A stretch of 64,000 nucleotides of DNA, taken from assembly GCA_965238005.1 (NCBI GenBank), contig OZ250165.1:4544001-4608000 (forward strand), given 5' to 3'. Positions 34,134 to 48,023 of this stretch are shown here, in pieces (positions within the stretch are counted from its first letter, which is position 1; each line of letters begins with the position of its first letter). Both the position numbers and the translations under genes were made by a program. The stretch is from Longimicrobiales bacterium. GTDB taxonomy: Bacteria > Gemmatimonadota > Gemmatimonadetes > Longimicrobiales > Gaopeijiaceae. Under the pieces are notes generated by a model. It did no database searches and had not been told where the DNA came from. It saw only the letters and a list, made by a program, of their open reading frames with translations.

Positions 34134-36011
34134 GTGTCCAACCCCGACGAGCCCGACAAGAAGCGACCGCAACCCACCGTCGCCTGGAACCCAAAGGACC
34201 TTCCGGACTTCGAGGAGGGATCTCCGGCGGAGAGCGGCACGCCGCCCGGCGATGAGAGCGCCGGCGCTGGAGGGGCTGGGGACGACCCGGAGGAAGATCT
34301 GCTCGTAGGCACGCTCCTCAGGGACAAGTGGCGCGTTCTGAAGCGCCTCGGAGCCGGCAGTTTCGGGACCGTCTACAAGGTCGAGGACGTGAAGGGCGGC
34401 TGGATCGAGGCGCTGAAGATCCTCGGTGTAGACCGGTTGGTCGGGGCCGAGGCGGAGACCATGAGAAAACGCTTCCTCAGGGAGGCACAGATCATGAAAC
34501 GCCTGGGTACGGAGTCGGCCCACATCGTGGGACTCGCCACTTACGAGGAGGACCTCGAGGCGGGGCTCATCTATTTCCTCATGGAGTATGTCGAGGGCAA
34601 GAGCCTCGCGGATGCGGTCCTCGAGCAAGGCCCCTTCAGCGCCGAGCGGACCATCCGACTGGGCCTCCAGGTCTGTGACGCTCTCATCGCCGCTCACGAG
34701 GGCCCCGAACCAGTCGTGCACCGCGACATGAAGCTCGAGAACGTCATGCTCACCACGGACCGTGCGGGTGAGGAGATCGTGAAGGTGCTCGACTTCGGGA
34801 TCGCGAAGATCGCGGAGCGGGAAACGGACAGTCGCCTGACGACCGTAGGGACGTTGGGCACCCCGGGGTACGCGGCCCCGGAGCAGCTGCGTGCCGAGGA
34901 GGTGGACGGGAGGACCGACCTCTTCGCCTTCGGGGTGATCCTCTACGCCTTGCTCACCGGCCGGGACCCCTGGCTCGGCAATCCGGCCGGTGAGGCGACG
35001 CATCAGATCTACGAGCTCATGGTCGCCACGGAGCGTGGCGACGTGAAGCCCTTCTCCGAGACCGGGGTGGAGGTTTCGCCGGCCATGGAGAACGTGGTCC
35101 TGCGCCTCCTGCGCCGAGACCCTGACGACCGCTTTCCGTCGGCCCGTGAGCTCCGGGACGCCCTCCAGCGGGTGGCGGCCGGGGGAGAGGCGGCGGACGC
35201 GGGCTCACTTCGGGTCCTGACGGATGAGCCGGGTGTGGAGGTCCAGGTCCGCATGGGGCGCCGTACGGTGGCCGAGGGGCCCACTCCGTGCGTGGCCAAC
35301 GGCCTCGGACCCGGTACGTACAAGGTTTCGCTGAAGGACGCTCGCTACGAGCCGGTGGAGACCACGGTGACCCTGGCGGCCGGGGCCATGGAGGACCTCA
35401 CGCTGGTTACCACACCCAGGAGCCGGGGCGTCGCTGCGAGCGTACTGCGGCGTCCGGGACTCGTTGCGGCCGGCGTAGTGGTCGTTCTGCTGGCGGCAGG
35501 GGCGGCCGTCCTCCAACCCTGGGGACGGGCACTGGAATTGGCCGACCTCCAGGCCCGTGCCGCCGAGGCGGGTGTGAGAGGCGTGCGAGTCAGCGCCGAC
35601 GGCATCGAAGGACGGCTTCCGATGGGGCCGGTCGGTGTACCGTTTCGGGTTCGGGTCAGCGAAGAGGATGTGCCGGGGGCCGTGGCGGGGCTCCGCTCGG
35701 CTGGCCTCGACGTGGATACGTCATGGGAGGTGGCGCGTCTGATCGGAATGGCTGCGTCGGCGCAGTCCGAGACACGCTACTTCGGGCGGGACGGAGACGA
35801 CGTGCGCTCCTATGCCCAGAGGGCGGCCACCCTCGAGCCCGAGAGCGCCGAGGCCAGGTCGCTGCTCCTCAAGGTTGCGGAGCCCTTGGCCTGGGACGCA
35901 GAAGCGGCCCGGCAGGACGGCTCTCCCGAAGTGGCGGACCAGCTGGTGCGCGAGTGCCTCTCGCTCGTGCCCGATCATCCCGGCTGCATGGCGGCGGACG
36001 GGGGGAGCTGA
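34134..36011 (+). CDS. Hanks-type Ser/Thr protein kinase with PEGA-like domain and TM helix
   Basis: LGAGSFGTVY, ALKIL, HRDMKLEN, DFG, GTPGYAAPE, DLFAFG. Confidence 0.93.
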   Translation: MSNPDEPDKKRPQPTVAWNPKDLPDFEEGSPAESGTPPGDESAGAGGAGDDPEEDLLVGTLLRDKWRVLKRLGAGSFGTVYKVEDVKGGWIEALKILGVDRLVGAEAETMRKRFLREAQIMKRLGTESAHIVGLATYEEDLEAGLIYFLMEYVEGKSLADAVLEQGPFSAERTIRLGLQVCDALIAAHEGPEPVVHRDMKLENVMLTTDRAGEEIVKVLDFGIAKIAERETDSRLTTVGTLGTPGYAAPEQLRAEEVDGRTDLFAFGVILYALLTGRDPWLGNPAGEATHQIYELMVATERGDVKPFSETGVEVSPAMENVVLRLLRRDPDDRFPSARELRDALQRVAAGGEAADAGSLRVLTDEPGVEVQVRMGRRTVAEGPTPCVANGLGPGTYKVSLKDARYEPVETTVTLAAGAMEDLTLVTTPRSRGVAASVLRRPGLVAAGVVVVLLAAGAAVLQPWGRALELADLQARAAEAGVRGVRVSADGIEGRLPMGPVGVPFRVRVSEEDVPGAVAGLRSAGLDVDTSWEVARLIGMAASAQSETRYFGRDGDDVRSYAQRAATLEPESAEARSLLLKVAEPLAWDAEAARQDGSPEVADQLVRECLSLVPDHPGCMAADGGS

Positions 36012-36138
36012 ACAGGCGTCGCTGGACAGCGGCGCATACGATACGGCATTATCGATCACTCGCCGGCTCGTATGCGCTCCGAGTGTCGTCCCCCCAGGCG
36101 GCCCTACCTGGGAACCGAACGAAGGGAGGAGACGAAGG

Positions 36139-36840
36139 ATGCCGAAGATCACACTGCTCCTGGGCCGGAAGATGATGCAGGTCTACGACCTGGATCAGGC
36201 GGCCATCCGCGTCGGGCGCGAAGAGGATATGGACATCCTCATCGACAACCCGTCGGTGTCGCGGAGGCAGGCGGAGATCCGCCGGGAGGGTGAAGGTTGG
36301 GTCGTCGAGGATCTCGGCTCTTCCAACGGGACCTTCGTTCACGGCCAGAAGATCGAAGGCCCCCAGGCCATCGTGGCCGGTGACGAAATCGGCTTCGGCA
36401 AGTTCTCCATTGTCTTCGACAAGGTGGTGGGGGAAGAGACGGCTTCCGCGAGCCACTCCCGGCCCCAGCCGGCCATGACCGGCTTCGAGGGCACGATGCA
36501 CATCAAGCCGCACGAGGTGAAGGAGCTCTTGAAGGACTCGGAGCGGAAGCGTCGCGCTCACGTCGTCTGGGAGTCGGGCGGTCAGCGGGGCACGCGCTAT
36601 CTGTCGGAGGTGCCCGCGGTCCTCATCGGAACGGGCACTCTCTGCGACGTGATGGTACCGAAGGGGCCCAAACACCATGTCCTGATCATGAGCAGGGAGG
36701 ATGGGTGCGAGGTCAAGAACCTCCACAACTGGACCAAGATGAAGGTAAACGGGGCCGTCAGGAATCCGGCCGACCTGAAAGATGGAGACGTGGTGCAAGT
36801 GGGGGGACTGAAGCTCACCTTCGTGGCGGACATCGCCTGA
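36139..36840 (+). CDS. FHA domain protein (one canonical and one degenerate FHA)
   Basis: VGR, VSRRQA, DLGSSNGTFV; second domain ends VNG..LKDGDVVQVG; GGAGG SD. Confidence 0.88.
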   Translation: MPKITLLLGRKMMQVYDLDQAAIRVGREEDMDILIDNPSVSRRQAEIRREGEGWVVEDLGSSNGTFVHGQKIEGPQAIVAGDEIGFGKFSIVFDKVVGEETASASHSRPQPAMTGFEGTMHIKPHEVKELLKDSERKRRAHVVWESGGQRGTRYLSEVPAVLIGTGTLCDVMVPKGPKHHVLIMSREDGCEVKNLHNWTKMKVNGAVRNPADLKDGDVVQVGGLKLTFVADIA

Positions 36841-36896
36841 GGGACCTGCGAGCTCTCCCTCCCTCCCTGCCCGGGGCACCCTGACCGGCCTAGTCC

Positions 36897-37859
36897 CTAT
36901 CCCCCCAGCACCAGGAACGCGATTACCACCACCACGATGACGACGCCGACGCCGACGCCGACGATCATGCCTACCGGCGGCCCTGTCTGCGGCGGTGTGC
37001 CCGTAACCGAGGTCACAGGCGCCGGACCCGGCTCGTCCGGTGGCGCCGAGGTCTCGATTTCGCTTTCCGCCTGAGCCGGCTCCGGCTCCACCACCTCGTC
37101 CGGTGGATCGAACTCCAGCGGCATGGTGCCTGCTGGGCGCATCCTCGGAACCTCACCGAACTCGGCGATGGCCACCGTGATGTTGTCATCGCTTCCACGC
37201 TCGTAGGCGGCTGACACCAGCGACTGGGCGGCGCCACGGGGGCCTCCCGACTGAGCGAACAGGTCACCGAGGTCGGAATCGCTGAGGGTCTTGTACAGGC
37301 CATCGGAGCAGAGGAGGACGGCCGAGTCACCCTCTACCGGGAAGGGTCCGAAGACGTCGACCTCGACCTCGGGGTCTGTGCCGATGGAGCGAGTGAGGGC
37401 GTCCTTCCACTGTGACGCCAGGGCTTCCTCCTCAGTCTGCCCCCGCTTCTGGGCCTCGGCCACGAAGGAGTGGTCCTCGGTGATTTGGCGTCCGCCCGAC
37501 TCCGAGATTACGTAGCACCGGCTGTCTCCTACGTTGGCGACCGCGTAGCCGTCCCCGTCCAGAAGCATGGCGACCAGCGTCGTTCCCATGCCCCGCTTTC
37601 CGGGCTCCTCCGCCTTGGAGTGGACGCGATCGTTGGCAAGACGGAATGCCTCGTCCAGTGATTGGCCTCCCTCGACGGCCTCCACGAGCGTCTCCAGCGC
37701 GAGGGCGCTGGCGACCTCACCAGCCGCGTGTCCGCCCATTCCGTCGGCGACAGCCAGGAGGATTCGGCCGTCCGACAGGGTGCGTGACAGGACGGAGTCC
37801 TCCTGATACGGCCGCTGGCCCGCAATGGACTCGGTGGCAAGCCGGGGTTGCTGCATCAC
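36897..37859 (-). CDS. PP2C-family Ser/Thr phosphatase with C-terminal TM anchor
   Basis: QED, VADGMGGH, MGTT, NVGDSR, CSDGL, DDNIT. Confidence 0.93.
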   Translation of the reverse strand: MMQQPRLATESIAGQRPYQEDSVLSRTLSDGRILLAVADGMGGHAAGEVASALALETLVEAVEGGQSLDEAFRLANDRVHSKAEEPGKRGMGTTLVAMLLDGDGYAVANVGDSRCYVISESGGRQITEDHSFVAEAQKRGQTEEEALASQWKDALTRSIGTDPEVEVDVFGPFPVEGDSAVLLCSDGLYKTLSDSDLGDLFAQSGGPRGAAQSLVSAAYERGSDDNITVAIAEFGEVPRMRPAGTMPLEFDPPDEVVEPEPAQAESEIETSAPPDEPGPAPVTSVTGTPPQTGPPVGMIVGVGVGVVIVVVVIAFLVLGG

Positions 37860-38096
37860 TCCACTCGTCGGGCGTGGGATCGAAGTGGTCGGGAAGACTT
37901 ACTTACAGATAGGCCGTGGGATGCCGGGTAGCAAGGAATCAGTGGGTGTCACCACCCGCTTCCTAGTCAGAATCGCTTCCCTTTGGTATCCTTGTAACCC
38001 TATGCATGCCGCTGATTCCGGGGGTGATCCCGACGTTGGGGCGCCTCATTGCCATATTGCCCAAGACCTCTCCCTGATGTTCAAGAACAGAACCGC

Positions 38097-39053
38097 GTGA
38101 GTACGTCACCCGCACCCTTCGGCGGCGATGAGTGGGCGCTGATTCTGGGTGGCTCGAGCGGCTTCGGGCTCGCCACCGCACATAAGCTGGCCGAACACGG
38201 GCTCAACTTGTGCATCGTCCACCGCGACCGCCGCGGGGCAATGCGTCGCATCGAGCCGGAGTTCGACCAGGTCCGGAAGCGAGGCGTCTCGCTCCTGACG
38301 TTCAACAAGGATGCCCTGGACTCGGACGTGCGGGCGGAGATTCTCGAAGCCTTGGCCGAGACACTAGGGGCCGAGGGCCGGGTCCGTGTCGTCCTCCACT
38401 CCATCGCCTTCGGCAATCTCAAGTTGATCGGTCCCGAAGCGGCCGCTTCCCATGTGGCCCGGCAGCGGTTGGCGGAAGCCCTCGGGGTCGATGAATCGGC
38501 GTTGGAGGAGGCTGCCGACCGCCTGTTCGAGGAGGGTATCGACGGTGTGCAGGGTCTCACGACGCCACCGGAGTACTCCGGCGACTCCTTCCTGGAGGAG
38601 GAGGACCTGACGCGCACGATCCACGCCATGGGCACCAGCCTCCTGGGTTGGACCCAGGAGCTCCTAGGCCGGGGCATGTTCGCGTCCGACGCCCGCATCC
38701 TGGGTCTCACCAGCGAGGGCAATGAGGTGGCATGGAAGGGCTATGCGGCGGTGGCAGCGGCGAAGGTGGCGCTGCAGTCGGTCTCGCGCTCCATCGCAGT
38801 GGAAATGGCTCCCTTCGGAATTCGGTCGAACATCGTCCAGGCCGGGGTTACGGACACGCCTGCTCTACGCATGATTCCCGGAAGCGCGCATCTGAAAGCC
38901 CAAGCGCGGACCCGGAATCCCTTCGGGCGTCTGACCTCTCCGGAGGACGTCGCCAACGTCATCTATCTCCTGTCTCTGCCCGAGGCCGCTTGGATCAATG
39001 GCGCAGTCATCCGAGTGGACGGAGGAGAGCGTATTTCGGGGGCTTCGCGATGA
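38097..39053 (+). CDS. Enoyl-ACP reductase-like SDR (FabI/FabL type)
   Basis: ILGGSSGFG, Y-x6-K (YAAVAAAK), GVTDTPAL, NPFGR, VDGG. Confidence 0.8.
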   Translation: MSTSPAPFGGDEWALILGGSSGFGLATAHKLAEHGLNLCIVHRDRRGAMRRIEPEFDQVRKRGVSLLTFNKDALDSDVRAEILEALAETLGAEGRVRVVLHSIAFGNLKLIGPEAAASHVARQRLAEALGVDESALEEAADRLFEEGIDGVQGLTTPPEYSGDSFLEEEDLTRTIHAMGTSLLGWTQELLGRGMFASDARILGLTSEGNEVAWKGYAAVAAAKVALQSVSRSIAVEMAPFGIRSNIVQAGVTDTPALRMIPGSAHLKAQARTRNPFGRLTSPEDVANVIYLLSLPEAAWINGAVIRVDGGERISGASR

Positions 39054-40045
39054 GCCTGTACCTTCACGGGCTGGGGCATTTCCATCCCGAGAGTGAGATC
39101 ACCAACGAGTTCCTTACCGATCTCGACATCGGGACGAACGACCAGTGGATCATGGAGCGAGTGGGGATCCGCGCCCGCCGCACGGTGCTTTCTCTCGACT
39201 ACATCCGTGAGACCCGGAATGTGGATCCCGGGGGGGCCGTGGAAGCCGCCATGTACACCCACGCAGAAACCGGTAGAAGAGCCGCGGAGATGGCGCTGGA
39301 GCGGGCAGGCGTGTCCAAGAACGACATCGGCATGGTCATCGCGGGCTCGAGCAAGCCGGAGTGGTCCTCCCCCGCCGATGCGTGTATGATCGCCCAGGCT
39401 TTGGAGCTGGAGGTACCCGCCTTCGACATGAACTCGGCGTGCACGAGCATGTGGGTGGCGCTCTATGCTCTGTCCATTATGCGCCCCGAAGCACTTCCGG
39501 AATACATCCTTCTGGTGACGCCCGAGAGCCTCACGACCGCGGTGGACTACTCCGACCGGTCGGCGTCAGTGCTCTGGGGAGATTGCACGACGGCTGCCGT
39601 GGTCTCTACGAAGGTCCCGTCCCGAATCCAGATCCTGCGTAACACCCTGGAGTCGAGCCCGGCGGGCAGCGACAAGGTGGTGGTTCCCCTTTTCGGTCAC
39701 TTCAGCCAGGAGGGTCGCACCGTCCAGATGTTCGCCATCAAGAAGACCGTGCGCTGCTTGCGGCGAATCCAGAAGGAGTTTCCGCCCCCGGGCCGCTCCC
39801 TCCACTTCATCGGCCACCAGGCCAACCTCAGGATGCTCGAAACAGTGTGCCAGCACTGTAACATCGACGGCGACCATCACCACTGCAACGTCGTGGACTA
39901 CGGCAACACGGGAGCCGCCGGAGCACCGTCCGTGATGTCCATGAATTGGGATCGATGGACCGACGGTGACGACGTGGCGATCATCGGGGTGGGCTCGGGC
40001 CTGTCCTGGTCCAGCTATGTGCTCCGCTTTGGAGAGACGCCGTGA
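39050..40045 (+). CDS. fabH: 3-oxoacyl-ACP synthase III
   Basis: Cys-His-Asn triad: NSACTS, GHQAN, YGNT; WIMERVGIRARR. Confidence 0.88.
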   Translation: MSLYLHGLGHFHPESEITNEFLTDLDIGTNDQWIMERVGIRARRTVLSLDYIRETRNVDPGGAVEAAMYTHAETGRRAAEMALERAGVSKNDIGMVIAGSSKPEWSSPADACMIAQALELEVPAFDMNSACTSMWVALYALSIMRPEALPEYILLVTPESLTTAVDYSDRSASVLWGDCTTAAVVSTKVPSRIQILRNTLESSPAGSDKVVVPLFGHFSQEGRTVQMFAIKKTVRCLRRIQKEFPPPGRSLHFIGHQANLRMLETVCQHCNIDGDHHHCNVVDYGNTGAAGAPSVMSMNWDRWTDGDDVAIIGVGSGLSWSSYVLRFGETP

Positions 40046-40632
40046 AGTACGATGAGTTCCGCGCGCGATCGCACCTTTCCGAGGAGGAGGTCCTGGCTTT
40101 CGCGTATGGGCGCTTGCTCGAGGACGAGCCTCCGGAGTTCAAGGCTCGCCTGCCGTTGCCCCCCATGCTGATGGTCGATCGCATCGAGCACCTCTCGCGA
40201 AAGGGTGCCCGGGGTCGGATCGTGGCGGAGCGGGATGTTCGCCTCGACGACTGGTTCTTCCACTGTCACTTCCTCGGCGATCCGGTCCAGCCGGGATGCC
40301 TTGGCGTGGACGGCGTCTGGCAGCTCATCGGCTTCTACTGCGCCTGGAACGGCGCCCTGGGCACCGGGCGGGCGCTGGGCTGCGGCGAGGTGGAGTTCTC
40401 CGGGCAGATCAGACCCCACGACAGAGTCGTCCGATACGAGATCGACATCGTTCGATATCAGGATCTGCCGCAGTCCGGGTCCGCCGTGGCCATCGGAGAC
40501 GCGACGGTGCTGGTGGACGGTGAGGCCATCTACGAGATCAGGCGCGCCAAGGTGGGTGTCTTTCGCGACATCGACTATGCCGACTACCCCTGGCCCTCGC
40601 AGCGGTCCCGTGGTGGGAAGATGGGCGAATGA
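40042..40632 (+). CDS. fabA: 3-hydroxydecanoyl-ACP dehydratase/isomerase
   Basis: LPLPPMLMVDRI, WFFHCHFLGDPVQPGCLGVDG (FabA-type Asp), GRALG. Confidence 0.88.
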   Translation: MKYDEFRARSHLSEEEVLAFAYGRLLEDEPPEFKARLPLPPMLMVDRIEHLSRKGARGRIVAERDVRLDDWFFHCHFLGDPVQPGCLGVDGVWQLIGFYCAWNGALGTGRALGCGEVEFSGQIRPHDRVVRYEIDIVRYQDLPQSGSAVAIGDATVLVDGEAIYEIRRAKVGVFRDIDYADYPWPSQRSRGGKMGE

Positions 40633-41105
40633 GCACGTCGGAGTCCGTGGGAACGAAGCTCACGCCGGCCCAGGTGTTGGAGCTGCTCCCCCAGCAGGAG
40701 CCGTTCAGGTTCGTGGACGAGATCCTCGAGGTGTCCGAGGACCACATCGTGGCCCACTACCGGTTTCGGCCAGACGCAGACTTCTATCGGGGTCACTTCC
40801 CGGGAAATCCGGTGACTCCGGGGGTTCTCCTCCTGGAATCCTTCGCCCAGATCGGCGTCGTCGCGCTCGGCATCTACATCATCGCCCTGGAGCACGGGAT
40901 CGAAGGCGCAAAGAAGCGAGTGGCTCTCTTCTGCGACGCCAACGTCGATTTCACCGGTGTCGTGAAGCCGGGGGACCGGGTGACGACGTCGGCGAGGAGG
41001 GTGTTCTTCCGGCGAAACAAGTTACGCTCCGAGGCGACCATGACCCTGGACGACGGGACCGTCGTCCTGTCCGGGACGATCTCGGGCGTGGGGGTGGAGC
41101 GATGA
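40629..41105 (+). CDS. fabZ: FabZ-like 3-hydroxyacyl-ACP dehydratase
   Basis: LPQQEPFRFVD, GHFPGNPVTPGVLLLE (FabZ-type Glu). Confidence 0.8.
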   Translation: MSTSESVGTKLTPAQVLELLPQQEPFRFVDEILEVSEDHIVAHYRFRPDADFYRGHFPGNPVTPGVLLLESFAQIGVVALGIYIIALEHGIEGAKKRVALFCDANVDFTGVVKPGDRVTTSARRVFFRRNKLRSEATMTLDDGTVVLSGTISGVGVER

Positions 41106-42379
41106 GCCACCGGGTAGTCGTCACGGGCATGGGCGTCGTGGCTCCCAACGGGAACGGCCTCGAGGAGTACGCTCGGGCCATCCGCGACGGCATTTCCGGA
41201 ATCCGGCATTACCCGCAGCTGGAGGAGCTCAAGTTCGGATGCACCGTGGGCGGGATCCCACAGGGCGTCGACGAGATCGCCGCCGAATACTTCGACGAGG
41301 ACGAGCTCCTGGCGATGAACAGCAGCCACCGGTACGGCTGCATCGCCGCCGTCGACGCGTGGACTGACGCCGGGTTCGAGCGACCTGAGCCGGGTGACGA
41401 TCGGGTCTATTGGGAGGCCGGGGCGGTTCTCGGAACGGGGATCGGCGGGCTGGATACCACCGGCGAGAAGCTCGTGCCATTTGTCGATGCCGGCCGGGTG
41501 CGCAGGCTCGGCAGCACTATCGTGGAGCAGGTCATGGGCAGCGGGGTCTCCGCGCGGGTGGCCGGACTTCTGTCCCTGGGTAACCAGGTGACGGCCAACT
41601 CCAGCGCGTGCAGCACCGGGTTGGAGGCGATCATCGCAGGGTACTGTCGGATCGCTGCGGGCCGCGCCGAGCGAATGCTGTGCGGAGGCACCGAGGGGTC
41701 GAGTCACTATGGCTGGGCCGCCTTCGACTCCATGCGTGTCCTCTGCCGGAGGCACAACGACGAGCCCGAGAGGGCCTCACGCCCGCTCAGCGCATCTGCG
41801 GGCGGGTTCGTTCCCGGCAGCGGTGCAGGACTCCTCCACTTGGAGAGCCTGGAGAGCGCCGAGGCGCGAGGTGCGCGGATCCATGCCGAAGTTCTGGGTG
41901 GCGGCATCAATTGCGGAGGGCATAGCGGTGGAGGTAGCATGACCGCGCCCAACCCGGAGGGAGTGCAACGCTGCATCCGGCAAGCCGTGGCGGATGCGTC
42001 CATCGATGCGGACGAGGTGGACGCCATCAATGGTCATCTGACGGCGACCGGCGCCGATCCGCGAGAAGTGGCCTCTTGGGCGAAGGCCCTCGAACGCACG
42101 CCGGAAACGTTCCCGGTGATCTCGTCGACCAAGTCGATGATCGGACACGCGCTGGGTGCCGCAGGGGCCTTGGAGGCGGTCGCATGTATCTTGATGCTCG
42201 AGGGAGGGTTTGTTCATCCCTCCATAAACTGTGAGGATGTGCACCCGGAGATCGAGGCATATGCGGCCTCGATCCCGCATGTGGTGCGCGAAATGCCGGC
42301 GCTGAATACGATTATCAAGGCGGGCTTCGGCTTTGGCGATGTAAATTCTTGTGCGATCTTCCGCAGGTGGGTCGACTAG
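41102..42379 (+). CDS. Elongating beta-ketoacyl-ACP synthase (FabF/FabB family)
   Basis: VVVTGMG, SACSTG, INGHLTAT, KSMIGH, GFGFGDVN. Confidence 0.9.
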   Translation: MSHRVVVTGMGVVAPNGNGLEEYARAIRDGISGIRHYPQLEELKFGCTVGGIPQGVDEIAAEYFDEDELLAMNSSHRYGCIAAVDAWTDAGFERPEPGDDRVYWEAGAVLGTGIGGLDTTGEKLVPFVDAGRVRRLGSTIVEQVMGSGVSARVAGLLSLGNQVTANSSACSTGLEAIIAGYCRIAAGRAERMLCGGTEGSSHYGWAAFDSMRVLCRRHNDEPERASRPLSASAGGFVPGSGAGLLHLESLESAEARGARIHAEVLGGGINCGGHSGGGSMTAPNPEGVQRCIRQAVADASIDADEVDAINGHLTATGADPREVASWAKALERTPETFPVISSTKSMIGHALGAAGALEAVACILMLEGGFVHPSINCEDVHPEIEAYAASIPHVVREMPALNTIIKAGFGFGDVNSCAIFRRWVD

Positions 42380-42404
42380 CACTGGATCGAAACGGGAAGC
42401 GCTA

Positions 42405-42653
42405 ATGACCAGAGAAGAGATCTTCGCGAAGGTGATAGAGATCATGAAGCCGTACGTGAAGAACCAAGAGGCACTGGATGCGGTGAACGAGGACACGAAC
42501 ATCCTCCAGGACCTCAAGGTGAATTCCGCACGGTTGGTGGACATCATCCTGAACTTCGAAGATGAGTTCGACATCGAAGTGGAGGATGAAGACGCCGATG
42601 CCGTGAACACCGTCGGCGACGCGGTGGGGCTCATCCAGCAAAAGATCTCGTAA
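42405..42653 (+). CDS. Acyl carrier protein (atypical NSA motif)
   Basis: Acidic 82 aa; DLKVNSARLVD, FEDEFDIEV, TVGDAV. Confidence 0.88.
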   Translation: MTREEIFAKVIEIMKPYVKNQEALDAVNEDTNILQDLKVNSARLVDIILNFEDEFDIEVEDEDADAVNTVGDAVGLIQQKIS

Positions 42654-42663
42654 GTCTCGAGTC

Positions 42664-43410
42664 GTGACGAAACTTCCCTTGAGAACACGGGCGGCGCTGG
42701 CCATTCAGCGGGAGGTGGGCCGGCTGTCTTCCGTCTTCTGGATCACCTCTATCGTCTTCGCGATGCGGTTCCTGATGAGGTATCACGTCAAGAACGCCGG
42801 CGCGCTGCGCAAGCGCTTTCGCGCCATGATGCGTGAGAACGATCAACCCCTGCTGATCTGCGCGAACCATCTGACCATGGTCGACTCGGCTGTGGTCGCG
42901 TGGGCCCTCGGGGGAAGCTGGTGGTACGTCTTCAACTACTCCCGCATGCCGTGGAATGTGCCGGAGTACACCAACTACGCGTTTGTTTGGCCCAGCCGGT
43001 TCGGTGCCTGGCTCACCAAGTGCATTCCGGTGAGACGGGGCGGGAGGCGGCAGGACGTGTCCGGGGTTATCAAGCGCGTGCAACATCTCCTCACCCGGGG
43101 CGAGACCGCTTTGATCTTCCCCGAGGCGGGGCGTAGCCGCACGGGGCGTGTGCAGTCCGACGCCATCGCCCACGGGGTGGGGAGGATCCTGAACTCCGTG
43201 CGGGACTGTCGAACACTGTGTGTATACATACGCGGTGACCGACAGAAGACATGGTCTACCGTTCCGGCCCGCGGCGACTCGTTCTACGTCGACTTGGAGC
43301 TCTTCAAGCCCGAGTCTGAGCATTCGGGCCTGCGGCGGTCCAGGGACCTGGCCGAGCAGATCGTAGCTCGACTGGCGCGTATGGAGCAAAAGTACTTTGC
43401 TTGTAGGTAA
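42664..43410 (+). CDS. PlsC-like lysophospholipid acyltransferase
   Basis: ANHLTMVD (HX4D), IPVRR, IFPEAGRS. Confidence 0.85.
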   Translation: MTKLPLRTRAALAIQREVGRLSSVFWITSIVFAMRFLMRYHVKNAGALRKRFRAMMRENDQPLLICANHLTMVDSAVVAWALGGSWWYVFNYSRMPWNVPEYTNYAFVWPSRFGAWLTKCIPVRRGGRRQDVSGVIKRVQHLLTRGETALIFPEAGRSRTGRVQSDAIAHGVGRILNSVRDCRTLCVYIRGDRQKTWSTVPARGDSFYVDLELFKPESEHSGLRRSRDLAEQIVARLARMEQKYFACR

Positions 43411-44104
43411 CGATATCGTCGATCTCCACGATCCGTGGAGCCAAGCCGGCAGGATCCACGGCCGCTTCGACAGCCGGGCGTTTACTCCCGCCGAACAAGC
43501 CCGCATCCGCGGGAGCCGCTCCGCGCATCAACTCCGATGGTCTCTCTGGGCGGCGAAGGAAAGCGCCTTCAAGGTCGCCCGGAAGCTCGACGGCGAGGTA
43601 CGGTTCTTCCCGAGGAGATTCGCCGTCCGGATGCTCGACGACGCCAGGGCCGAGGTGAGCCATGGAGTGGGGCGCTTCAGCGTCTGGTTCGAGCGAGCGG
43701 ACGGATGGCTGCACGCTCTCGCCGTGCCCGTGGCAGATCAGGCGACCGGTTCCCGTGCCGAAGTCCACGACGGAGCCGCCGGCGAGCCCCCCATCGGCGC
43801 CCGTGCCCGCGTCGGCCGAGTCGAGATCGACGGCTCGGGAGCTCGGGGCGACCGCCCCAGCGTTCGTGTTAGAGAGCTGGCGCGAACCGCCGTGGGGTCC
43901 CTGATGAACATCTCCCCGGCAGAGATCGACATCGTGACCCAGGGGGGGATACCGACCTTGCGCCGGCGAGACGAGCGTTTGCGCGTGGACCTGTCGCTGT
44001 CCCATCACGGCCGCTTCGTCGCCTGCGCGTGGGCCGTCTACCCTTGGGGGCACCGCCTAGGTCTGGCCGGTAACAGGCGCGCTAGCGCTTGTCGGCGCTC
44101 CTAA
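43397..44104 (+). CDS. 4'-phosphopantetheinyl transferase
   Basis: VGNDIVD, WAAKESAFK, LSLSHHG. Confidence 0.88.
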   Translation: MLVGNDIVDLHDPWSQAGRIHGRFDSRAFTPAEQARIRGSRSAHQLRWSLWAAKESAFKVARKLDGEVRFFPRRFAVRMLDDARAEVSHGVGRFSVWFERADGWLHALAVPVADQATGSRAEVHDGAAGEPPIGARARVGRVEIDGSGARGDRPSVRVRELARTAVGSLMNISPAEIDIVTQGGIPTLRRRDERLRVDLSLSHHGRFVACAWAVYPWGHRLGLAGNRRASACRRS

Positions 44105-46249
44105 CGCGGCTCGCCCCACTTCTGGGACACCACCCTGGGCGGATCCGGACTCGGACTGTCTTCGCTTGAAGCGCTGCCCGAGGATCTTCAGACCGGCGGG
44201 CTCTCCGATGACCGTGAGCCGGTCGCCCTCCTCGAGCACCGTGGCGCCCCGCGGGACGATGACCTCCGACTCGCGGCTCACCAGTGCGATGAGCGTGCCT
44301 TCGGGCATGTTCAGGTCCTTCAGGGCGAGACCGATGAGTGACGCGGCGGGGGTGTCGGGCTCCAGTGTGAGGGCCAACACCCTCTCGTCCCGAAGCACGG
44401 CCTCTTTGAGCTCCTGGTGATTGGACGCCGACAGCCACGCATCCATGAAGTCCTCTTTGTCCACGCGTCCGGCGATCTGAGCGAGGATGCGGAGGTGCTG
44501 GCCTGGGTTCTTCTCGGGACTGACCAGGAAAAAGACCGCCCGTACGGGTTCAAGCTGCTCCTGTGCCGTCCCGGCGGAGTCCACGTCCACGTCCATCTCG
44601 ATCCCGTCGATGCATCGAACGAGAACCATCCGCGAGGATCCGATGGTCGTGAGGCGGAGGTGGGGGAGCGCCACTCCGTGGGAGACCGGCGTCATGCCCA
44701 CCACCGTCCCCTTCAGGAAGCCATCACCCAGCCTCTTGGCCGACGTATCGCACGTATCGGCCAGATAGGCGGAGGCTTCCCATATGATGTCACGAAAGCT
44801 CGTGCCGCCTGGTGTGTCGATGATCGCCGCCGCCGCCACCACCTGCTCGAAGGGATCGGCGTCCCGGAGGCCCTTTTCCTTCATGATCTGCCGGAGCTCG
44901 CGGTCCAGGCCGACGTCGCGCTGGCGCCCGAGCCTCTCGAACACGTGGTAGATGGCCCCCTCGCGGTCCACTCGGTCGCGGGCGTAGTAGGTATACCAGA
45001 TCGCGCCAAACGTGATAAGACCTCCCGTGAACAGGCTGGGGAGAAGTCCCATCTCCACAACCACCCAGAAGGAGGCCAAGACGCCCAGTATGTGAAGCCA
45101 GGGGTAGAAGGGGGAGCGGTAGCCCGGGTCGTACGACTCGATGCGACTCTCCCTCATGACGATCACCGCCAGGCAGCTCAGCCCGAACATCATGAGCTGG
45201 AATGCTCCAGCGAGCTTGGCGATCTTGGTCGGGTCGAACAGCACGACGAAGGCGAGGATCAGCGCGACCGAGGTGAAGATGGCGTACATCGGGGTTCCCC
45301 GGGCCTGGATCTTCGAGAAGAACCGGGGAAGCACTTTGTCACGGCTCATGGCCAGGGGATACCGAGATGCACTCAGGACGGCCGCGTTCGACACGGATGA
45401 GAAGGCGAGGACCGCCGCCGCCGTCACCAGGATCATCCCCCATGGCCCCACCAGTACATCAGCCACCGTCGCAACCGGCGTCAGGTCGCCCCCGTCCCGT
45501 GCCAGGACATCCGCCGAGACGACCCCCACCATGACCGCTGTGCCCACGGTGTACACGAGGATGGCGGTGCCGAAGGCCAGGAACATTCCTAAGGGAAGAT
45601 TTCTCTCAGGGTTGCGGACTTCCTCCGCTATGCTGGCTACCTTGGTGAGCCCCATGTAGCTGACGATGACGAGGCCCGCAGTGGTAACGACCGACACCGG
45701 TGCCTGACTGAACATGCCGGCGAGATTCCCGGGCTCCACATGCATCAGCCCCGTGCCCATGAACCACGCCAGGATCAACAGCAGGGCCACGACCATGAAC
45801 CCCTGAAACCGGGTGGCCCTCTTCGCTCCCAGGACGTTGACGATCCCGAACAAAACGGCGAAGGCCACCGCGATAGGCACGACGTTGAGCTCGGGGAGGA
45901 ACAGCCGCAGATACGCCCCGATACCGATGAGGGCGAAGGCGGCCTTAAGGGAAAGTGCGATCCATGTCCCGAAGCCCCCCACCGTTCCCATGAGGGGTCC
46001 CATGCTGCGATCCACGAAGTAGTAAACGCCTCCGGCTCGCGGCATGGCCGTAGCTAGCTCCGCCATGCTGACCAGGCCGGGGACCAGCAGGAGACCGGCC
46101 AGAAGGTAGGACAAGGGCATTCCCGGCCCGGCTCCGGCGGCCGCGAGCCCCGGAAGCAGGAAGAAGCCCGAGCTCAGCGTGGCGCCCGTGGCGATGACGT
46201 AGACGTCCCAGAGGCCCAGCTCCTTCTTGAGGAGCTCCGGTTTGCTCAT
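44057..46249 (-). CDS. APC amino-acid permease fused to PTS EIIA-like and TrkA-C (RCK_C) domains
   Basis: SSGFFLLPG, AELATAMP.AGG, EEVRNP; GVALPH..HLRILAQIA; IVPRGATVLEEGD. Confidence 0.88.
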   Translation of the reverse strand: MSKPELLKKELGLWDVYVIATGATLSSGFFLLPGLAAAGAGPGMPLSYLLAGLLLVPGLVSMAELATAMPRAGGVYYFVDRSMGPLMGTVGGFGTWIALSLKAAFALIGIGAYLRLFLPELNVVPIAVAFAVLFGIVNVLGAKRATRFQGFMVVALLLILAWFMGTGLMHVEPGNLAGMFSQAPVSVVTTAGLVIVSYMGLTKVASIAEEVRNPERNLPLGMFLAFGTAILVYTVGTAVMVGVVSADVLARDGGDLTPVATVADVLVGPWGMILVTAAAVLAFSSVSNAAVLSASRYPLAMSRDKVLPRFFSKIQARGTPMYAIFTSVALILAFVVLFDPTKIAKLAGAFQLMMFGLSCLAVIVMRESRIESYDPGYRSPFYPWLHILGVLASFWVVVEMGLLPSLFTGGLITFGAIWYTYYARDRVDREGAIYHVFERLGRQRDVGLDRELRQIMKEKGLRDADPFEQVVAAAAIIDTPGGTSFRDIIWEASAYLADTCDTSAKRLGDGFLKGTVVGMTPVSHGVALPHLRLTTIGSSRMVLVRCIDGIEMDVDVDSAGTAQEQLEPVRAVFFLVSPEKNPGQHLRILAQIAGRVDKEDFMDAWLSASNHQELKEAVLRDERVLALTLEPDTPAASLIGLALKDLNMPEGTLIALVSRESEVIVPRGATVLEEGDRLTVIGEPAGLKILGQRFKRRQSESGSAQGGVPEVGRAALGAPTSASAPVTGQT

Positions 46250-47561: not shown

Positions 47562-48023
47562 TCACTCCCATTCGATGGTTCCGGGGGGCTTGGAGGCGAT
47601 GTCCAAGGCCAGGCTGGAAACACCGGGGAGATCCAGGATCTCCTCCCGCAGGTCGTCCAGAACCTCCGTGGGGAGCTCTACCGGCGTGGCCGTCATGAGG
47701 CGGTTGTCCACGTGGAGGAGGTGGAGGTGATCCGGGCCCCAGCGATTGTCCGAGGACCGTCGCCGCCGCCGTGGAATCCACGCCGCCCGAGGCAAGCAGG
47801 AAGAAGCCGTAGCGCCGAAGCGAGTCGGAGCCGCGGAGTCCTCTCCCTGCGAGGCCAGGCTGGGGCTGCCCGAGATGATGATCCCCCGATAACCGAGGAA
47901 GGCGTCGATGGGGTCCTCGGGCTGCCGGATCTCAGCCAGCACAGCGCGGCGGCGCACTTTGGCGGCGATGAGGTGGGCGTACTGCCCTCCGAAGTCTATG
48001 ACGGCAATGCTGTCGTGTGCCAT
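47562..48023 (-). pseudogene. guaA: GMP synthase remnant in three pieces
   Basis: N-term IDFGGQYAHLI..IISGSP; off-frame FLLASGGVDST; HVDNRLM joined to TA.. and C-term SKPPGTIEWE; 153 codons vs over 500 typical. Confidence 0.88.

Follow-up and report, generated by a model that had tools for sequence, protein, structure and literature searches.

The 64,000-nucleotide stretch analysed here (the window) belongs to a Longimicrobiales bacterium of the phylum Gemmatimonadota (GenBank assembly GCA_965238005.1, contig OZ250165.1, positions 4,544,001 to 4,608,000), to which we refer as the host. On its forward strand, it encodes an eight-gene operon for type II fatty acid synthesis (FAS), with its own acyl carrier protein (ACP) as well as a terminal acyltransferase. 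An earlier note, made from the sequence alone, had described this operon as a self-contained accessory FAS and as a candidate for an undescribed lipid pathway. The gene names in the following list are based on Pfam and NCBIfam profile matches.

38049..39053, + strand: FabL-like enoyl-ACP reductase, a short-chain dehydrogenase/reductase (SDR); best NCBIfam model FabL; internal insertion of about 60 amino acids (aa)
39050..40045, + strand: FabH-type ketoacyl-ACP synthase (KAS) III; C131/H256/N286 intact; starter pocket remodelled
40042..40632, + strand: FabA dehydratase/isomerase, His/Asp type; PRK05174 cut-off passed
40629..41105, + strand: FabZ-like dehydratase, His/Glu type; FabZ score below cut-off
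41102..42379, + strand: elongating KAS of a distinct clade; C170/H312/H349; GHLTAT and FGFGDVN motifs
42405..42653, + strand: private ACP, 82 aa; PP-binding; VNSARLVD around the phosphopantetheine serine
42664..43410, + strand: acyltransferase of the lysophospholipid acyltransferase (LPLAT) superfamily; PF01553; NHLTxxD and FPExxR
43397..44104, + strand: dedicated 4'-phosphopantetheinyl transferase (PPTase); PF01648; the operon's least conserved gene

All eight open reading frames are intact, without internal stops, and tightly linked; as the note had stated, they mostly overlap, and the profiles confirm the names that it gave them. Four junctions overlap by 4 nt (39050/39053, 40042/40045, 40629/40632 and 41102/41105) and the LPLAT and PPTase genes by 14 nt, while gaps of 25 and 10 nt lie on either side of the ACP gene, whose start is the ATG at 42405, a small correction to the note. 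The start of the SDR gene is ambiguous (TTG 38049 or GTG 38097), and the final 48 nt of the PPTase frame, encoding its C-terminal tail, overlap a convergent permease gene, which ends at 44057. In agreement with the note, neither FabD nor FabG was found in the operon with the profiles. A promoter and terminator scan of the operon yielded one site of each kind, which is chance level, and two RNA libraries from one study are neutral on expression, with short contigs that are mostly 95-99% alike, cover several genes and have a share of 0.07.

The operon is an accessory second FAS, as the note had proposed, because a complete housekeeping FAS is encoded elsewhere in the 4.84-Mb host genome (95.85% complete). 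Its plsX-fabH-fabD-fabG-acpP-fabF locus sits at C1:1840-1846 kb; FabZ is matched at 1604 kb, FabI is encoded at 73 kb, and an Sfp-type PPTase gene lies at 3629 kb. Four further PF01553 proteins are encoded in the genome as well. The operon itself does not qualify as a housekeeping locus, as it has no FabD, no FabG and no AcpP with the DSL motif. Replacement of the housekeeping system was considered and rejected, since the host and other carriers hold canonical FAS genes besides the cassette: in 30 other carrier genomes, chosen from the 80 loci described below, canonical FabD is present in all 30 and FabF exceeds its cut-off in 24. AcpS was not found in the host genome with TIGR00516, and a search for FabV, which gave no signal in any control, is uninformative. 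Most of the cassette-negative relatives among 50 genomes of the host family show just one PF01648 match, probably the enzyme that serves AcpP.

The cassette is widespread. A scan of species genomes returned at least 599 stretches; 329 of these passed confirmation, and the 80 best were retained as loci. The order of the genes, which the note had suggested comparing across phyla, is identical in all 80 of these, and they come from several phyla. ACP is present in 79, LPLAT in 78, FabZ in 76, FabA in 73, FabH in 70 and PPTase in 66, with many of the gaps falling at contig ends; the reductase lies upstream in 55 of the 70 loci with FabH, is missing in eight despite sufficient room and is cut off in seven. 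FabG is inserted ahead of FabZ in 22 of the 80 loci, and a single-chain BC-BCCP-CT carboxylase of 1,880 aa follows the cassette in 33, without a Gemmatimonadota label among them. Neither the host protein nor that of E. coli, used as queries, revealed a FabD gene in any of the 80 loci; since it is missing from every locus seen, it would have to be borrowed, and 'self-contained' is too strong a term. In 11 loci whose sequence continues for 585 bases or more beyond LPLAT, no PPTase gene was found, and for this reason a PPTase of the host can probably serve the private ACP. No head-group genes are conserved in the flanks of the cassette loci inspected; a DegT gene follows LPLAT in one of 12 inspected loci without PPTase (L042), and upstream genes for DinG-like proteins (14 loci) and TPP enzymes (nine loci) look like host synteny. 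The carboxylase (~1,880 aa, e.g. L061:10432-16092 and 32 further loci, from Myxococcota and others) is of eukaryotic style, and at the threshold used a TetR gene follows it in five loci.

By record title, the loci belong to Gemmatimonadota, Myxococcota, Acidobacteriota, Binatia and a small number of further groups, where lone odd labels may be binning errors; the closest named records are Longimicrobiales (Gemmatimonadota), with KAS identities of up to 96%. Within the phylum, the distribution is patchy (2 of 151 sampled genomes). In a sample of the host family, 38 of 201 genomes, representing 12 of 81 genera, carry the cassette, which is mostly fixed by genus (8/8, 5/5 and 4/4 in several genera), and FabA occurs in 39 of these 201 genomes, including all 38 carriers of the LPLAT cassette. 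A quick tree of the KAS intermingles phyla and therefore fits horizontal transfer. Compared with three relatives from other lineages, synonymous codon differences exceed amino-acid-changing ones about 2.5-6:1 in KAS, FabA and FabH, and the GC content at third codon positions (GC3) is 0.78-0.87 in the operon and 0.79-0.83 in housekeeping genes. The conserved order in 80 of 80 loci and the synonymous excess argue for more than a chance assembly; the operon is a real, selected and widely moved accessory FAS. Carriage on plasmids was considered and rejected, as the best of 933 records has 38% identity and none is a near relative.

On the level of the individual proteins, the reductase scores best with the FabL model (116.7 bits), below its cut-off of 328; its best match in the PDB is B. 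subtilis FabL (3oic, E 1e-19), and the Y-x6-K motif is present. In FabH, the C131/H256/N286 triad is invariant (65 of 65 sequences), the position of E. coli F87 is occupied by Ser or Thr in 61 of 65 and that of F304 by Val in all 65. A small residue at position 87 accompanies long starters in the work described in the available part of PMC3734052, and the Ser/Thr found there suggests that this FabH may use a non-acetyl starter; the rule is a loose one, as the host's own housekeeping FabH has Leu at this position. FabA reaches 203.5 with PRK05174 and passes this equivalog cut-off (124); it matches solved FabA with an E value of 5e-43, with the catalytic H and D aligned. The FabZ-like protein scores 74.6, below the cut-off of 113.

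The KAS scores below both relevant cut-offs (FabF 295 vs 494, FabB 246 vs 630), is 33% identical to FabB and 31% to FabF, and falls into a clade apart from E. coli FabB, E. coli FabF and host FabF (SH-aLRT 100), as judged by two quick trees without bootstrap, in which a single row represents FabB. Its GHLTAT and FGFGDVN motifs take the place of HGTST and FGFGGTN in E. coli; both the resulting G-to-D change and the C170/H312/H349 triad are invariant in 79 of 79 sequences. All 79 cassette ACPs carry VNSARLVD, whereas the AcpP proteins of the host and of E. coli carry the acidic DSLDTVE. The altered stretch is the start of helix II, named the recognition helix in the available part of PMC9386255. 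This N-S motif would explain the dedicated PPTase and would keep the product apart from bulk synthesis. Together with the N-S-motif ACP, FabZ and often the reductase and PPTase, the KAS clade, which is marked by GHLTxT and FGFGD, forms a co-travelling set that is newly described here.

The terminal acyltransferase is a member of the LPLAT superfamily, with HxxxxD and FPExxR motifs and the fold of glycerol-3-phosphate acyltransferases (GPATs) in its structure model; N68-H69-L70-T71, D74, F152 and R157 are invariant in 80 sequences. The model built with these 80 sequences has a mean confidence (pLDDT) of 86.7, while a single-sequence prediction reached only 37. Its fold compares best with GPAT1 (Z score 16.9), 7zkq_T (16.1), plant GPAT (14.5) and PlsC (14.1), followed by PatA (10.0) and LpxM (9.5), with unrelated folds at 5 or less. 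In fold and motifs, it agrees with the label 'PlsC-like' in the note; its TIGR00530 score is 25.9 against a cut-off of 103, and GPAT1, plant GPAT and PlsC lie within 3 Z units of each other. The subfamily is distant from solved members, with a best E value of 0.38 for its profile against the PDB, and a search of the ESM Atlas returned only its own family. A kinship with the GNAT-like protein of locus L123, described below, was rejected; the two are unrelated.

Part of the operon recurs in a different setting. Of the relatives of its KAS at the 50% cluster level, 20 representatives were looked up, and they include proteins from Aureicoccus, Ekhidna, Taibaiella and further Bacteroidota. With a profile built from ten of these sequences, at least 599 metagenome matches were obtained, of which 566 were confirmed and the best 80 loci kept; because the sample was fetched with this Flavobacteria-led profile, the ratios given here are not natural frequencies, and the label 'Bacteroidota' for these contigs rests on tree neighbours. 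These loci contain KAS (80), ACP (72), FabZ (64), PPTase (50) and a FabL-like SDR (23), a sister core without FabH, FabA or LPLAT. Its SDR, FabZ, KAS and ACP are 35-53% identical to those of the window (FabZ 35-44%; SDR of the loci linked to a type III polyketide synthase (T3PKS) 43-46%), and its ACP motif is of the INSANLVD type. In 47 of the 80 loci, a T3PKS gene on the same strand is located 0.3-2.1 kb upstream of the core; 36 of these 47 also have a methyltransferase and 33 an FAD oxidoreductase, but none has FabA or LPLAT. Four of the 80 are window-type loci, and among the other 45 loci with more than 2 kb of upstream sequence, 39 have a T3PKS. The six that do not include three with a gene similar to serine palmitoyltransferase (Spt-like), four with a GNAT-like gene directly before the core and two with neither; the best model for the Spt-like proteins is SerpalmtaseCFB, at 567-611 bits and short of the cut-off of 640. 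Spt-like and/or GNAT-like genes directly precede the core at L115:3014-9472, L118:3005-9472, L124:2475-8275 and L123:5356-8281, and in L123 a GT2 glycosyltransferase gene lies downstream of it. Given the gene context, we presume that the GNAT-like and NAD-epimerase genes encode a ceramide synthase and a reductase.

As other lipid-building enzymes adjoin the same core in other bacteria, reductase, FabZ, KAS, ACP and PPTase likely constitute a portable, reusable chain-building core. A bolder and decidedly tentative proposal is that the N-S-motif ACP and the FGFGD KAS mark an unrecognised, widespread plug-in module. It would build one distinctive, chemically unusual acyl chain on a shielded carrier and pass it to interchangeable end enzymes, namely LPLAT for glycerolipids (in Gemmatimonadota, Myxococcota, Acidobacteriota and others), T3PKS to give phenolic lipids or Spt/ceramide synthase to give sphingolipids (in Bacteroidota), maybe even with its extender loaded without FabD.

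For the operon in the window, we lean, with modest confidence, towards a second type II FAS with a private ACP that borrows FabD and FabG, makes a cis-monounsaturated chain without oxygen and loads it onto a glycerophospholipid precursor. The catalytic roles in this scheme are predictions from the observed genes, residues, folds and distribution. The PPTase would activate the N-S-motif ACP, and housekeeping FabD would be borrowed, along with FabG where the cassette has none. FabH, judging by its pocket residue, would likely prime synthesis with a starter longer than acetyl-CoA, and FabA would likely convert the trans-2 intermediate into its cis-3 isomer. This cis-3 chain would then be extended by the KAS, with the FabZ-like and FabL-like enzymes, whose catalytic residues are in place, finishing each cycle. 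Finally, LPLAT, by virtue of its fold, would take the chain off the private ACP and pass it on to glycerol-3-phosphate, lysophosphatidic acid or a lysophospholipid. FabH and FabA would thereby act as front ends, and LPLAT as the back end, of the portable core. This reading is supported by catalytic residues that are intact and invariant across 65-79 relatives and by the occurrence of FabA in the host family almost exclusively with the cassette, and the additions of FabG (22 of 80 loci) and carboxylase (33 of 80) fit de novo chain building.

Several observations weigh against it. The KAS is not of the FabB clade by profile or tree, so that its extension of cis-3 chains is an assumption, and it has S275 where 78 of 79 relatives have Arg, a Ser shared with L012 and therefore probably no sequencing error. 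The fold search does not single out an acceptor, with GPAT1 and 7zkq_T tied and PlsC close. The host also has a Pfa-like synthase, and desaturase-family genes (PF00487) are as frequent in carriers (21 of 27) as in non-carriers (18 of 24), although related genomes do not count as independent in this comparison and PF00487 is a broad family. Without any complementarity, a role as a substitute for desaturases was rejected; as carriers keep such genes, the cassette is not a mere replacement for the aerobic route. Lastly, the Bacteroidota-like core works without FabA, for which reason unsaturation may not be the point of the core at all.

This last argument leads to an alternative that we consider unlikely, in which the chain is special in another way, i.e. 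very long, branched, hydroxylated or polyunsaturated, like that of rhizobial AcpXL for lipid A, and FabA is secondary. The KAS clade with its own invariant motifs (FGFGDVN in 79 of 79) would fit such a product, as would the service of the FabA-free core to T3PKS- and Spt-linked loci, and both the private ACP and the altered starter pocket of FabH point to a product separate from bulk fatty acids; yet FabA is retained in 73 of the 80 cassette loci, in which no methyltransferase, radical-SAM enzyme, hydroxylase or second KAS/chain-length factor recurs. It is less probable still that the chain is cis-monounsaturated as proposed but its acceptor is not a glycerophospholipid, being instead an amino-lipid, lipid A, a glycolipid or the precursor of an ether lipid. 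The great distance of LPLAT from PlsC in sequence, the shared fold of PatA and LpxM and the four other PF01553 proteins of the host leave room for this, but PatA and LpxM rank 4-7 Z units below the glycerolipid enzymes, and head-group or N-acyltransferase genes do not recur beside the cassette. That the operon is a redundant or decaying import of ordinary FAS genes without a product of its own, as its patchy distribution, the lost KAS residue and a fragmentary gene nearby might indicate, is very improbable in view of its synonymous bias, housekeeping-like GC3, fixation in several genera, invariant ACP motif and a permease gene that adjoins it in 11 of 80 loci.

The operon can be compared with several known systems. 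Aryl polyene, ladderane and type II polyketide clusters are recognised by a ketosynthase-chain-length-factor pair, an adenylation enzyme, or radical-SAM or methyltransferase genes; as the note had remarked for the first two, such signature genes are missing from the operon, and none recurs in the 80 loci. The anaerobic FabA/FabB branch of E. coli, which makes unsaturated fatty acids, likewise has a true FabA with His/Asp and an elongating Cys-His-His KAS, but it uses housekeeping AcpP and scattered genes, whereas the operon has its own ACP, PPTase, FabH and acyltransferase. The rhizobial AcpXL cluster, a very-long-chain system, contains a pair of FabF-type KAS along with an acyltransferase for lipid A. 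Its layout is similar, in that a private ACP works with a dedicated KAS, FabZ and reductase, the last step falls to an acyltransferase, and FabD and FabG are borrowed, as is proposed for the operon; the operon, however, has one KAS instead of two, FabH and FabA, an SDR reductase and a PF01553 acyltransferase, and is not a member of this group. AcpXL is described as a specialised ACP for lipid A in the available part of PMC9386255, where the AcpR/AasR-Spt sphingolipid system of Rhodobacteria is another case of a specialised ACP that feeds a lipid-forming enzyme. Spt-like genes also precede the sister core in L115, L118 and L124, but AcpR obtains free fatty acid via a synthetase, whereas the ACP here comes with KAS and dehydratase, and the operon in the window has no Spt. 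The carboxylase of the 33 related loci resembles the multidomain acetyl-CoA carboxylase SACE_4237, as presented in the available part of PMC6491548, in layout and size (~200 kDa); the operon in the window has no carboxylase.

The closest parallel does not support the term 'undescribed': Coxiella burnetii (CBU_0034-0038) and Spirochaeta africana have a FabH-FabA-FabZ-FabB-ACP block, which is described in print as a second FAS gained by horizontal transfer (available part of PMC5423948). Its role in unsaturated fatty acid synthesis, which agrees with our reading, was assigned by homology (PMC5423948, PMC13252051, available parts), and transposon hits in two of the Coxiella genes lowered intracellular growth (PMC5423948). 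On the other hand, the available part of the preprint PMC13252051 reports mainly branched-chain Coxiella membranes and an unclear role for their unsaturated fatty acids, a further point that weighs against our reading. Compared by gene order and context, the operon has the same five genes in the same order, and both are second systems beside a vertical fab locus, patchy, cross-phylum and horizontally moved. The best hits listed for the Coxiella block (Spirochaeta, Desulfatibacillum) fall into groups with the cassette (records labelled Spirochaetaceae and Geobacter), although no sequence named for Coxiella or Spirochaeta africana turned up among the plasmid records or the KAS cluster representatives. 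The published five genes include no reductase, LPLAT or PPTase, and the KAS in the window is not a FabB by tree. While the five-gene block is known, the core common to three lipid end-enzymes is new; a literature search, to which subscription papers were mostly outside coverage, found nothing on the eight-gene form or this core.

FabA-type chemistry is usually regarded as a proteobacterial housekeeping trait. Here, at least hundreds of genomes, most of them from uncultured organisms, carry it on a mobile cassette, and assignments of lipid biomarkers could therefore go wrong. Three lipid classes are tied together by the shared core, and cultured Bacteroidota with a sister KAS (Aureicoccus, Ekhidna, Taibaiella) make the question testable. 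Provided that orthology holds, the product would be relevant to Coxiella as well, whose second FAS is unexplained.

In the surroundings of the operon, a gene on the minus strand (44057-46249) encodes an APC permease fused to phosphotransferase-system EIIA and TrkA-C domains; it is this gene that adjoins the cassette in 11 of 80 loci. Upstream, at 34134-37859, lies a trio of Ser/Thr kinase, FHA protein and PP2C phosphatase, which is found beside it in no more than 3 of 80 loci and is for this reason considered unrelated to the cassette. The note's 'window full of decay' was followed up by a spot check only, which did show a guaA-like fragment at 47562-48023, with better guaA matches at C1:1484-1486 kb; between 47562 and 50596 there are also broken-looking frames labelled by eye as cytochrome c/nitric-oxide-reductase-like.

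Elsewhere in the host genome, C1:3260536-3272291 (L177:4537-16292, minus strand) encodes a GNAT-like protein, a reducing type I polyketide synthase (KS-AT-DH-ER-KR-ACP in a 2172-aa frame), a class I/II pyridoxal-phosphate enzyme, an NAD epimerase, an ACP and a KAS. Its GNAT-like protein is 25% identical to that of L124 and its pyridoxal-phosphate enzyme 34% to an Spt-like protein, and the cluster looks like a putative polyketide-synthase-fed sphingolipid pathway within a polysaccharide region. At C1:3610465-3629252 (L178), a Pfa-like two-gene synthase precedes genes of the alpha/beta hydrolase, AMP-binding and 3-beta-HSD-like types, which we presume to be Ole BCD-like; the host's only Sfp-type PPTase is encoded in the same stretch, and similar large KS frames are found in several related Longimicrobiales genomes. 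Finally, 17 tRNA genes are arrayed on one strand at C1:1035994-1037821, as is typical of a mobile element, and a tRNA-Sec gene lies at 1907151.

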